This document shows, piece by piece, positions 48,694 to 53,497 of a stretch of DNA of 64,000 nt (its first letter is position 1; the number at the start of each line of letters is the position of its first letter). The DNA lies in assembly GCF_058153355.1 (NCBI RefSeq), contig NZ_CM177019.1. One strand, given 5' to 3'. The notes under the pieces are model-generated. The model was not told the DNA's origin. It searched no databases and saw only the letters and a list, made by a program, of their open reading frames with translations. The position numbers and the translations under genes are program-made.

Positions 48694-49785
48694 ATGGGAT
48701 TCAAATGCGGTATCGTCGGTTTGCCCAACGTCGGGAAATCTACCCTGTTCAACGCGCTGACCAAAGCCGGTATTGAAGCGGCCAACTTTCCATTCTGTAC
48801 CATTGAGCCGAACACAGGCGTCGTACCAATGCCTGACCCTCGCCTGGATCAACTGGCTGAAATCGTAAAACCGCAGCGTACGCTTCCCACGACCATGGAA
48901 TTTGTCGATATCGCCGGTCTGGTAAAAGGCGCATCGAAAGGCGAAGGTCTGGGTAACCAGTTCCTGACCAACATCCGTGAAACCGAAGCGATCGGTCACG
49001 TTGTTCGCTGCTTTGAAAATGACAACATCATTCACGTTTCCGGCAAAGTTAACCCGGCTGATGATATTGAAGTTATCAACACCGAACTGGCGCTGGCAGA
49101 CCTCGACACCTGCGAACGTGCGATTCATCGCGTACAGAAGAAAGCCAAAGGTGGCGATAAAGACGCGAAAGCCGAGCTGGCGGTACTGGAAAAATGCCTG
49201 CCGCAGCTGGAAAACGCAGGTATGCTGCGCGCGCTGGATTTAAGCGCTGAAGAGAAAGCGGCTATTCGTTACCTGAGCTTCCTGACGCTGAAACCAACAA
49301 TGTACATCGCCAACGTCAACGAAGACGGTTTTGAAAACAACCCGTATCTTGACCAGGTGCGTGAAATCGCGGCGAAAGAAGGTTCTGTTGTGGTTCCGGT
49401 TTGTGCTGCTGTTGAAGCAGACATTGCCGAACTGGACGACGAAGAACGTGACGAGTTTATGCAGGAGCTTGGGCTGGAAGAGCCGGGTCTGAACCGCGTG
49501 ATCCGTGCCGGTTATAAGCTGCTGAACCTGCAAACTTACTTCACCGCTGGGGTGAAAGAAGTGCGTGCATGGACCATTCCGGTTGGTGCAACCGCGCCGC
49601 AGGCCGCTGGCAAAATCCATACTGATTTTGAAAAAGGCTTTATCCGCGCACAAACTATTTCGTTCGAAGATTTCATCACTTACAAAGGTGAACAAGGCGC
49701 GAAAGAAGCAGGCAAAATGCGTGCAGAAGGTAAAGATTACATCGTTAAAGATGGCGATGTAATGAACTTCCTGTTCAATGTCTAA
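48694..49785 (+). CDS. ychF: ribosome-binding ATPase YchF (Obg-family)
   Basis: 363-aa ORF with G1 motif GLPNVGKST and C-terminal TGS domain. Confidence 0.95.
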
Positions 49786-49842
49786 TTAATTTGTTGTCTC
49801 ATGAGGTTTCGCTAAATCTCATGAAGAGCGCAAAAGTATATA

Positions 49843-49868
49843 AAATCCACGCAATTGCGTGGATTTTT
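49843..49868 (+). terminator. ychF rho-independent terminator
   Basis: ATCCACGC-AATT-GCGTGGAT hairpin followed by TTTTTC. Confidence 0.55.
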
Positions 49869-50030
49869 CATTTCACCGAGTCCTAACCATTCTTATAACA
49901 TCCTACACTTTTGTGCTTATTGCCTATAGTGAACCACGAGAATAATTAAAGACATAAGTGTTCAGATGAGGGATATCTCATTAGCAATGAGATCACGTAA
50001 GTTTGTGTTCCACTGCACATCAGACACCTT

Positions 50031-50285
50031 TTACAGCTGATCAATATTGATCACGCTCCAATATGCTGGCGAGAAAAGGACTTGCCTGAAGGGCAATATC
50101 CAGCAGATAAAGCCCCCGAATAACGTGATTACGTGCGATCCTGACAAGATGAAAATGATAACCAGTATCACGATAATAACGATATGCCAGAAAATCCATT
50201 GATCAAAAATGAATATCGATGTTTTTTGCTTTTTCTTATTAGTAATGCAAAAATGGCTCATATTGTTTTTGTTATGCAGATACAT
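50031..50285 (-). CDS. hypothetical small membrane protein (84 aa from ATG); doubtful
   Basis: ORF with two predicted hydrophobic helices (WIFWHIVIIVILVIIFILSG, VITLFGGFICWILPF) in an AT-rich intergenic region; no clear Shine-Dalgarno. Confidence 0.2.
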   Translation of the reverse strand: MYLHNKNNMSHFCITNKKKQKTSIFIFDQWIFWHIVIIVILVIIFILSGSHVITLFGGFICWILPFRQVLFSPAYWSVINIDQL

Positions 50286-50629
50286 CAAGCGAAAATCCCA
50301 TAACTAATTAGGATTATTACCAAAAATATTCACCAAATTATTTAAACGCTGTTTGTTGTAATGTTTTTGTCATATTCATAGTAACGAATTGGAATAAGTA
50401 ACGACAACTTAGGGAATAACTCGATCTAAACTCACCTTTGTAAGGGGGATGTTAAATATATATTAATTCATGTGTTCCTGATTTTGCCCGGTAATAGAGA
50501 ATTATTCTCAGAGCAGCTCATCATGATTGCACCATACAAATATCATGATGATAAGAGGATATTATTCATTGACTTAAACAAAATGACAAAATCCATAGAC
50601 CCATAGCCTGGGTACTATATAGGAGTGGT

Positions 50630-53497
50630 ATGGGCATCAAACAACACAATGGGAATACCAAAGCCGATCGTCTCGCTGAATTAAAAATCCGTTCGCCCTC
50701 CATTCAACTGATAAAATATGGCGCTATTGGTTTGAATGCAATTATCTTTTCCCCCCTGCTGATAGCTGCTGATTTAGGAAGTCAAAATGGCACCAATATT
50801 ACTATTAATGATGGTGACAGAATTACAGGAGATACCGCCGATCCATCAGGAAACCTCTATGGTGTAATGACCCCAGCAGGAAACACGCCTGGCAATATCA
50901 ACCTGGGTGATGATGTCACCGTCAATGTCAACGACGCCTCTGGATATGCAAAGGGAATCATTATTCAGGGCAAGAACAGCTCTCTGACAGCTAACCGACT
51001 TACAGTAGATGTTGTTGGTCAAACCTCTGCCATCGGCATTAATTTAATTGGTGACTATACACATGCTGACTTAGGCACAGGCAGCACCATTAAGAGTAAC
51101 GATGACGGCATCATTATTGGGCATAGCTCAACACTAACAGCCTCTCAATTCACCATTGAAAACTCGAACGGTATAGGCCTAACCATCAATGACTATGGCA
51201 CCAGTGTCGATCTTGGAAGCGGTAGTAAAATCAAGACCGATGGAAGTACAGGTGTTTATATCGGTGGTCTCAACGGCAATAACGCCAACGGTGCTGCGCG
51301 TTTTACGGCGACAGACCTGACAATCGATGTTCAGGGCTACAGCGCCATGGGAATAAACGTACAGAAAAACTCTGTTGTCGATCTCGGAACAAACAGTACC
51401 ATTAAAACCAATGGCGATAATGCACACGGCCTCTGGAGCTTTGGCCTGGTGAGCGCGAATGCACTCACTGTTGATGTAACTGGAGCCGCTGCCAATGGCG
51501 TCGAAGTTCGTGGTGGTACAACCACTATCGGTGCTGATAGCCATATTTCTTCCGCGCAGGGCGGTGGCCTCGTAACCAGTGGTTCAGACGCGACAATCAA
51601 TTTTTCTGGCACGGCAGCGCAACGAAACAGCATCTTTTCCAGCGGTTCTTATGGTGCCTCAGCCCAGACGGCAACGGCTGTTATCAACATGCAAAATACC
51701 GATATTACGGTTGATCGTAATGGCAGTCTGGCGCTGGGTTTGTGGGCGCTCAGCGGCGGTAGAATAACCGGAGACAGTTTGGCTATCACCGGCGCGGCAG
51801 GAGCCAGGGGGATTTATGCCATGACCAACAGCCAGATCGATCTCACGAGCGATCTGGTCATTGATATGAGTACACCCGACCAGATGGCCATCGCAACGCA
51901 ACATGACGATGGTTATGCCGCCAGCCGCATCAACGCTTCGGGTCGTATGCTTATCAACGGTAGCGTTCTTTCTAAAGGTGGGCTAATCAATCTGGATATG
52001 CACCCTGGGTCGGTTTGGACAGGTTCTTCCCTCAGCGATAATGTCAATGGCGGGAAACTGGACGTTGCAATGAATAACAGCGTCTGGAACGTAACAAGTA
52101 ATTCTAATCTCGACACGCTGGCGCTGAGCCATTCAACTGTCGATTTTGCCAGCCACGCGTCAACTGCCGGCACATTTACCACATTAAACGTAGAGAACCT
52201 TAGCGGTAACAGTACCTTTATTATGCGTGCTGATGTTGTTGGCGAGGGTAATGGCGTTAATAATAAAGGAGATTTATTGAATATCTGCGGGAGTAGTGCT
52301 GGTAATCACGTATTGGCTATCCGTAACCAGGGCAGCGAGGCCACAACGGGAAATGAAGTTCTGACAGTGGTAAAAACCACTGACGGCGCGGCCTCGTTCA
52401 GCGCGTCTTCTCAGGTTGAGTTGGGGGGATATCTGTATGATGTGCGTAAAAATGGCACTAACTGGGAGCTTTATGCTTCCGGGACAATTCCGGAGCCGAC
52501 TCCTAATCCAGAGCCCACACCAGCTCCCGCTCAGCCCCCCATAGTCAACCCCGATCCTACGCCTGCCCCCGCTCCCACGCCTAAACCCACCACGACCGCA
52601 GATGCTGGCGGCAATTATCTCAATGTCGGTTACTTATTGAACTATGTTGAAAACCGTACGCTGATGCAACGGATGGGTGACCTGCGAAATCAGGGTAAAG
52701 ACGGTAATATCTGGTTGCGCAGTTATGGGGGAAGCCTGGACTCCTTTGCCAGTGGCAAACTGAGCGGCTTTGACATGGGTTACAGCGGTATCCAGTTTGG
52801 TGGGGATAAACGTCTCTCTGATGAAATGCCGTTGTATGTCGGTCTGTATATTGGCTCAACACATGCATCGCCGGACTATAGCGGAGGCGACGGTACCGCA
52901 CGTTCAGACTACATGGGAATGTACGCCAGTTACATGGCACACAACGGTTTTTACAGCGATCTCGTTGTAAAAGCATCGCACCAGAAAAATAGTTTCCACG
53001 TACTGGACAGTCAGAACAACGGCGTTAACGCCAACGGCACTGCGAATGGATTGAGCATCTCCCTGGAAGCCGGGCAGAGGTTCAACCTGACCCCTACTGG
53101 TTATGGGTTCTATATAGAGCCGCAAACCCAGCTCACATACAGCCACCAGAATGGGATGGCTATGAAGGCGAGTAATGGTCTCAATATACATCTGAATCAC
53201 TACGAATCGCTGCTGGGGCGTGCCAGCATGATACTGGGATATGACATCACCGCAGGCAACAGCCAGCTGAATGTCTATGTGAAGACTGGCGCTATCCGCG
53301 AGTTTTCAGGGGATACCGAATATCTGTTGAACAACTCCCGGGAGAAGTACAGTTTCAAAGGTAATGGCTGGAATAACGGCGTGGGAGTCAGTGCACAGTA
53401 TAACAAACAGCACACATTCTATCTCGAAGCGGATTACACGCAGGGTAACCTCTTTGATCAGAAGCAAGTCAACGGAGGATATCGCTTCAGCTTTTAA
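50630..53497 (+). CDS. ycgV: AIDA-I-like autotransporter adhesin YcgV
   Basis: 955-aa ORF with Gly/Thr/Asn-rich beta-helical passenger repeats, Pro-rich linker (PEPTPNPEPTPAPAQPPIVNPDPTPAPAPTPKP) and C-terminal beta-barrel ending in F. Confidence 0.85.
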   Translation: MGIKQHNGNTKADRLAELKIRSPSIQLIKYGAIGLNAIIFSPLLIAADLGSQNGTNITINDGDRITGDTADPSGNLYGVMTPAGNTPGNINLGDDVTVNVNDASGYAKGIIIQGKNSSLTANRLTVDVVGQTSAIGINLIGDYTHADLGTGSTIKSNDDGIIIGHSSTLTASQFTIENSNGIGLTINDYGTSVDLGSGSKIKTDGSTGVYIGGLNGNNANGAARFTATDLTIDVQGYSAMGINVQKNSVVDLGTNSTIKTNGDNAHGLWSFGLVSANALTVDVTGAAANGVEVRGGTTTIGADSHISSAQGGGLVTSGSDATINFSGTAAQRNSIFSSGSYGASAQTATAVINMQNTDITVDRNGSLALGLWALSGGRITGDSLAITGAAGARGIYAMTNSQIDLTSDLVIDMSTPDQMAIATQHDDGYAASRINASGRMLINGSVLSKGGLINLDMHPGSVWTGSSLSDNVNGGKLDVAMNNSVWNVTSNSNLDTLALSHSTVDFASHASTAGTFTTLNVENLSGNSTFIMRADVVGEGNGVNNKGDLLNICGSSAGNHVLAIRNQGSEATTGNEVLTVVKTTDGAASFSASSQVELGGYLYDVRKNGTNWELYASGTIPEPTPNPEPTPAPAQPPIVNPDPTPAPAPTPKPTTTADAGGNYLNVGYLLNYVENRTLMQRMGDLRNQGKDGNIWLRSYGGSLDSFASGKLSGFDMGYSGIQFGGDKRLSDEMPLYVGLYIGSTHASPDYSGGDGTARSDYMGMYASYMAHNGFYSDLVVKASHQKNSFHVLDSQNNGVNANGTANGLSISLEAGQRFNLTPTGYGFYIEPQTQLTYSHQNGMAMKASNGLNIHLNHYESLLGRASMILGYDITAGNSQLNVYVKTGAIREFSGDTEYLLNNSREKYSFKGNGWNNGVGVSAQYNKQHTFYLEADYTQGNLFDQKQVNGGYRFSF

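Follow-up and report, generated by a model that had tools for sequence, protein, structure and literature searches.

The AT-rich spacer between ychF and ycgV of Escherichia coli, a probable H-NS-silenced control region

Promoter islands of Escherichia coli are stretches of DNA to which RNA polymerase is bound and from which essentially no full-length transcripts arise (PMC3661553). One of them, the 301-bp island 1255333_301 (numbered on U00096.2), has been placed in the K-12 spacer between ycgV and ychF (Panyukov & Ozoline 2013, PMC3661553). In that catalogue it carries the mark "A", which denotes H-NS binding according to all of the ChIP studies compared, and it is tied to a gene predicted to be foreign (PMC3661553). 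The spacer of another adhesin gene, yfaL, is also a listed promoter island (PMC3661553). In avian pathogenic E. coli, the repressor YbdO was found to shift a 126-bp EMSA probe, which corresponds to positions 50504-50629 of the DNA studied here, and deletion of ybdO raised the ycgV transcript about fourfold (PMC11681634). Genomic SELEX, in turn, gave a weak RpoH peak in the ycgV/ychF spacer and, for RpoD, no constitutive promoter there.

Here we analysed the same spacer in the window, by which we mean the whole 64-kb stretch of DNA under study. We consider it probable that the spacer is an H-NS-silenced, AT-rich control region of ycgV, that the open reading frame (ORF) inside it is unselected and drifting, and that a palindrome with two GATC sites is a chance feature. 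An H-NS-bound ycgV control region is already catalogued for K-12, and there is nothing new in this reading; the region is textbook AT-rich, H-NS-bound DNA before a cryptic, horizontally acquired adhesin gene and has little wider importance. It does carry a caution: a hydrophobic ORF on a T-rich strand and a perfect 16-bp GATC palindrome look meaningful and fail population and chance controls.

Layout and distribution of the spacer

The window has the E. coli chromosomal gene order prs-dauA-ychH-pth-ychF-spacer-ycgV-dhaR. With the end of ychF at 49785 and the start of ycgV at 50630, the spacer is 844 bp long and not 845 bp, as an earlier note on this DNA had stated. The coordinates of its features are given in Table 1. 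Neither K-12 MG1655 nor any of the 30 listed RefSeq E. coli genomes has an annotated feature under the spacer, and a repeat search of the region returned the terminator hairpin and short chance repeats only.

Table 1. Features of the ychF-ycgV spacer (window coordinates)
Feature	Position	Strand	Remarks
ychF-ycgV intergenic region	49786..50629	.	844 bp, GC 0.35
ychF intrinsic terminator	49842..49867	+	Perfect 13+13 hairpin, A-tract before, T-tract after
84-codon orphan ORF	50031..50285	-	Lys/Asn-rich N-terminus, hydrophobic helices at residues 24-47 and 52-66
Perfect 16-bp palindrome TGATCAATATTGATCA	50038..50053	.	Two GATC sites; within ORF codons 78-83
75 bp missing in K-12-type strains	50070..50144	.	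25 codons, including the second hydrophobic segment
Codon 68 of the ORF	50082..50084	-	CAA (Gln) in the window; TAA stop elsewhere via G>A at 50084 on the + strand
AT-rich core, counterpart of K-12 promoter island 1255333_301	50172..50472	.	Placed by coordinate mapping and the GC minimum
Proximal 126 bp upstream of ycgV	50504..50629	+	Equals the YbdO EMSA probe; PMC11681634 primers matched to the sequence
Shine-Dalgarno AGGAG of ycgV	50621-50625	+	Precedes the ATG at 50630

On the ychF side, the spacer opens with a bidirectional terminator, an arrangement as found between convergent genes. The hairpin is flanked by both an A-tract and a T-tract, and because of this a terminator was flagged on both strands. 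An Rfam search at a permissive threshold returned only sub-threshold Leu-leader-like matches on this terminator and a spurious miRNA match.

The terminator is also the last stretch in common with B2-type strains without ycgV, in which the first ~89 bp of the spacer are retained and an island with an integrase and IS follows. In the B2-type strain that we inspected, homology to the window ends ~89 bp past ychF, beyond the terminator (window 49786-49874), and an island with a tyrosine integrase and ISEc24 (locus L012, 4001-5386) replaces both the spacer and ycgV. The presence of an alternative island beyond the terminator suggests that the latter is a junction for alternative genomic islands.

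Among the 5,426 complete E. coli genomes, 4,087 matched the spacer at a query coverage of at least 80%, in most cases with 90-95% identity. Roughly one genome in four is without the region, and ycgV is an accessory gene. In K-12 the spacer measures 768 bp and is without 75 bp inside the ORF. We also observed that the spacer of the window is ~5% diverged from that of K-12, as against ~2% for ychF, pth and ycgV. Its most polymorphic stretch, with 16 variable sites per 100 bp, runs from the ychF terminator to the stop of the ORF (49871-50030) and holds several 1-2-bp indels among 12 haplotypes. Damage to ycgV or its promoter is frequent: in strain 1506 an IS1 element sits 34 bp before the ATG, whereas O145 RM11626-C1 has a truncated ycgV and PT62 a frameshifted one.

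Two further motifs were spotted by eye. A Fur-box-like sequence, TGATAACCAGTATCA, lies at 50156-50170 and is not retained in K-12. A 13-bp palindrome, GAGAATTATTCTC, at 50497-50509 stands at the border of the probe used in the published YbdO EMSA. Palindromes this long are common: the window has 15 perfect ones of at least 12 bp.

Outside E. coli, a scan of one genome per species found no YcgV ortholog in the representatives of other Escherichia species. An ortholog with 80% amino acid identity is present in a 'Citrobacter sp.' (Citrobacter-like) gut MAG, where it stands behind a porin gene in a different context. About 430 bp upstream of the MAG gene (locus L013, 3460-4008) align with window positions ~50200-50629. 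As this upstream stretch is shared despite the other context, the control region appears to travel with ycgV. Two conserved blocks of the MAG and the window, CTGATT..CCCGGTA..AGA.ATTATTCTC and GGGTACT.TA.AGGAGTGGTATGG, are candidate ycgV control elements.

The YcgV scan also matched distant paralogs in Pragia and Leminorella and two contaminant contigs. Near-identical E. coli ychF-ycgV DNA occurs in an 'Actinomycetes bacterium' MAG and in Nocardioides malaquae (L016, L018), most likely as contamination. In Pragia fontium and Leminorella grimontii, ycgV-like autotransporter genes stand in tandem, each behind a spacer of ~590-830 bp (L014, 3311-3898; L017, 3150-3976). These spacers have no similarity to that of E. 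coli, and a divergent small membrane ORF analogous to the one described below is absent at both loci.

The AT-rich core and the silencing of ycgV

The earlier note had described the gap as AT-rich, and this proved true beyond chance. The 300 bp of lowest GC in the entire window are located here (50174-50473), with a GC content of 0.283 compared with 0.502 overall. For mapping of the K-12 promoter island, we used an offset of +777 between U00096.2 and U00096.3, which agrees with the published spacer labels. The gap-free alignment of K-12 with the window then placed the island at 50172-50472, where it coincides with the GC minimum. This core overlaps approximately the first 38 codons of the ORF.

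When we scanned crudely for the sigma-70 consensus, 2 promoter-like sites turned up, compared with 5.3±2.4 in shuffled sequences, so that this method does not reproduce an island of promoters; the published island call had used another algorithm. A good match to the high-affinity H-NS motif TCGATAAATT is missing from the core, and the window shows no enrichment of the motif. Given so few sigma-70 sites and no H-NS motif in the core, the claim of silencing rests on base composition and on published data from other strains.

In the mechanism that we propose, the spacer would serve as the upstream control region of ycgV, an accessory autotransporter-adhesin gene. H-NS would coat its AT-rich, xenogeneic-type DNA and keep it transcriptionally silent, as in the 'promoter island' state of K-12, and YbdO would act as a further repressor on the last 126 bp. 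The ORF, which is partly inside the core, would drift as the non-coding DNA around it does; most strains carry it in truncated or deleted form. That this silencing operates in the window's own strain we infer from papers on other strains, from which both the H-NS occupancy and the YbdO binding come. The proposal of an H-NS-silenced ycgV promoter region, raised in the earlier note, is supported by the GC minimum together with the published K-12 ChIP results, and for K-12 it had already been in print.

The minus-strand open reading frame

The minus-strand ORF to which the earlier note had drawn attention does have the coordinates and the length of 84 aa given there, counted from the ATG; from a TTG at 50288 it would encode 85 aa. 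Its predicted layout is protein-like: the N-terminus is basic and is followed by a transmembrane segment and, after a short loop, by another segment. Both segments had been called strongly hydrophobic, which holds for the first (residues ~24-47, very strong, Kyte-Doolittle up to 3.55) and not for the second, which is only moderate (residues 52-66, Kyte-Doolittle 2.15). We likewise found no Shine-Dalgarno sequence at a usable distance from the start, the sole candidate being GGGA at -14..-11, in agreement with the remark that no convincing ribosome-binding site is present.

The length of the ORF is not beyond chance. In simulated composition-matched 844-bp sequences, an ATG-initiated ORF of at least 84 codons appeared in 9% of cases, and the share rose to 43% when 59 codons sufficed.

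Codon composition gave a different result. The ORF has GC1/2/3 values of 0.31/0.26/0.54, that is, a three-base periodicity in phase with the frame. The difference between GC3 and the mean of GC1 and GC2 is 0.25, a value attained by 0.13% of 1,501 ORFs that were simulated with a length of 70 codons or more (p≈0.001). T occupies codon position 2 in 48% of the codons, which was reached in 1% of simulations (p≈0.01). Both the GC3 and the T2 excess are confined to the ORF and do not extend to its surroundings. A chance ORF alone does not predict such frame-locked periodicity, and the signal is unexplained. The T-rich codons, on the other hand, account in part for the membrane-protein look of the ORF.

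These observations bear on the possibility that the ORF is, or recently was, a gene confined to E. coli that encodes a small inner-membrane protein with two helices, convergent with ychF and either a young orphan or decaying. We regard this as unlikely. Besides its periodicity and its T2 content, such a gene would have the bidirectional terminator shared with ychF to end its transcript, and a promoter-like site lies on the minus strand (50589-50561, 10 of 12 positions matched). Several gene callers predict the ORF, and hydrophobic small ORFs in intergenic regions are reported to be common in Enterobacteriaceae (PMC11188072). Against a gene speak the missing ribosome-binding site, the lack of annotation in RefSeq K-12 and the other RefSeq genomes listed, and the reported transcriptional silence of this DNA.

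Comparisons with other sequences argue in the same direction. Scans of Pfam and NCBIfam with the ORF gave only noise and no family. A homolog search with the 84-aa sequence, suggested earlier as a check, returned nothing from elsewhere, either in a word-indexed search of 5.8 billion proteins or in an exhaustive HMMER search of 1.84 billion representatives. All protein matches are length variants (84, 81, 77, 67 or 59 aa) of the same E. coli/Shigella locus. Nor was a homolog of the ORF found among the ycgV-bearing loci of the Citrobacter-like MAG, Pragia, Leminorella and the contaminant contigs. Upstream of the nearest ycgV ortholog, that of the MAG, the ORF is not conserved: 3-, 4- and 5-nt indels run across the stretch homologous to its N-terminus, and the alignment ends before its C-terminal half and the palindrome. 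In the accessible part of the PIRT-Seq and 'Cryptic microproteome' supplements, the locus is not mentioned.

We then surveyed the alleles of the ORF in the 5,426 complete genomes by exact-haplotype searches, with a 70-nt haplotype standing for the intact form. It was present in 231 genomes (~4%, or ~6% of the region carriers); strains 118UI and 2017-02-2CC are examples of the intact allele. The codon-68 TAA is the commonest undeleted haplotype, found exactly in 1,546 genomes and within 1-3 mismatches in another 298 (~1,850), and the junction of the 75-bp deletion was found in 1,991. Placement of this deletion is ambiguous by a few bases owing to microhomology (CTGGCGAGA / CTGACAAGA). Overall, the ORF is broken in about 94% of the region-carrying strains.

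In an alignment of 20 DNA sequences, four independent disrupting alleles were seen, namely the codon-68 stop, the in-frame 75-bp deletion, an additional G in a run of five and the loss of one A. The earlier note had named frameshifts or stops in close relatives as evidence against a coding sequence, and breaks of this kind occur in four forms. The first 48 codons, in turn, are open in all 20 sequences, a count partly biased toward an intact N-terminus because 7 of the 20 were found through protein hits. It also favours a gene that the 75-bp deletion is in frame, leaving 59 aa with one helix, and that the codon-68 stop leaves 67 aa with both hydrophobic segments spared. As a separate observation, haplotype blocks from the two ends of the ORF are found in recombinant mixtures; three loci (L023-L025), for example, combine K-12-like N-terminal substitutions with an intact C-terminus.

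Substitutions in the ORF are compatible with neutrality and far from the pattern of the neighbouring genes. In a set of 12 haplotypes chosen by DNA similarity, we counted 24 substitutions, distributed over codon positions 1/2/3 as 14/5/5; 17 are nonsynonymous (including the stop) and 7 synonymous, where neutrality predicts about 19% synonymous. In the comparison of the window with K-12, the corresponding counts are 1/0/22 for ychF (all synonymous), 1/1/9 for pth and 15/10/40 for ycgV. The ORF has 9.0 variable sites per 100 bp and the ycgV-side flank (50286-50629) has 8.4. The check on coding conservation that had been suggested for this ORF gave no pattern of purifying selection. As judged from the sequences compared, the ORF appears not to be a gene under selection in present-day E. 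coli and to lack detectable constraint.

The idea of an unannotated small membrane protein, also put forward in the earlier note, goes mostly unsupported in view of the broken alleles and the unselected substitutions, while the coding-like periodicity leaves room for a young or decaying gene. This periodicity is the sole reason for hesitating to dismiss the ORF entirely. Taken with the protein-like layout, the open N-terminus and the in-frame deletion, it is easier to reconcile with a gene that existed formerly, or has only just arisen, and is now drifting than with mere accident, an interpretation to which we give limited credence. The ORF would on that account be a species-restricted gene in birth or decay, encoding a two-helix membrane protein and truncated or deleted by at least four independent routes, which we find doubtful. 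If the intact allele is indeed translated, the allele set (intact, nonsense, in-frame deletion and two frameshifts), spread over thousands of genomes, could be a small worked example of the birth or decay of an orphan gene.

A more specific variant would make the ORF the toxin of a type I toxin-antitoxin module, in which a small hydrophobic peptide is held in check by an antisense RNA. The ORF is indeed small, hydrophobic, intergenic and variable between strains. At 84 aa, however, it is long for the class, it is single-copy and without homologs, it has no ribosome-binding site and it lies within H-NS-silenced DNA. No antisense RNA features were found, and Rfam offers no relevant match, only the sub-threshold ones on the terminator. 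We consider this variant extremely unlikely and retain the reading of an unselected, drifting ORF inside a probable ycgV control region.

The GATC palindrome and comparison with described systems

The perfect 16-bp palindrome was reported correctly in the earlier note, in coordinates and sequence as well as in its two GATC sites, which start at 50039 and 50049, exactly 10 bp apart. Such a palindrome is expected by chance. Simulated 64-kb windows contain on average 1.06 perfect 16-bp palindromes, and at least one is present in 63% of simulations; the window has two, the other being the ychF terminator. GATC itself is not significantly enriched in the spacer, where 6 sites compare with an expectation of 3.6 (p≈0.15); pairs of GATC spaced by at most 12 bp number 17 in the window.

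The palindrome varies at 3 of its 16 positions (50038, 50045 and 50051) and is thus conserved no more than the sequence on either side. In K-12 it is imperfect, the centre being changed in K-12-type strains (TGATCAAAATTGATCA), and in the O157:H7 strain 319 the second GATC reads GACC. Its position, within the ORF and 577-592 bp before the ycgV ATG, puts the AT-rich core between it and the gene, and we recognised no regulator motif at its GATC sites. The palindrome is an accident of sequence, and nothing indicates that it is under constraint.

The earlier note had proposed a methylation-sensitive switch at this place. In its full form, the palindrome with its two GATC would be a Dam-methylation-sensitive binding site for a protein that makes ycgV phase-variable, as OxyR and Dam do for Ag43. 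The exact 10-bp spacing within a perfect palindrome and the kinship of ycgV with Ag43 would suit such a switch, and ycgV is named among the genes with differentially methylated GATC in evolved clones, with sites given without positions (PMC10653831). The available part of the supplements of that paper mentions neither ycgV nor ychF, and in the published literature searched we found nothing on the methylation state of these two sites. The chance-level frequency of the palindrome, the ordinary density of GATC and of close GATC pairs, the distance from the ATG beyond the AT-rich core, the poor conservation with a GATC lost in the O157:H7 strain, and the absence of a counterpart at the MAG ortholog all argue against the proposal. 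We consider a switch of this kind very unlikely.

At the agn43 (flu) promoter, the OxyR site contains three GATC sites. The likeness to the present locus is that a related autotransporter adhesin gene, ycgV, lies downstream and that GATC sites are clustered. The difference is that here two GATC sites are placed ~580 bp upstream, inside an ORF, are not conserved and have no known binding protein.

The ORF resembles the orphan and hydrophobic small ORFs described in Enterobacteriaceae (PMC11188072; PMC12315717) in being intergenic, AT-rich, hydrophobic, free of homologs and limited to a single species. The catalogued families, however, were selected for purifying selection, and the ORF shows none; in the accessible part of the catalogue's supplementary text it was not found.

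Closer parallels to the probable control region are found among H-NS-silenced cryptic adhesins, such as yfaL and the cryptic chaperone-usher fimbriae. Like ycgV, they combine AT-rich upstream DNA, low or cryptic expression in the laboratory and an accessory or acquired gene. For ycgV, the evidence for silencing comes from the ChIP summary and the YbdO study (PMC11681634).

The closest system is the K-12 island 1255333_301 itself (PMC3661553). It represents the same locus, aligns to the window without gaps across the island, coincides with the GC minimum and stands next to a predicted-foreign gene. The spacer of the window differs in being ~5% diverged and 76 bp longer, and it is for the K-12 counterpart that H-NS binding is reported.
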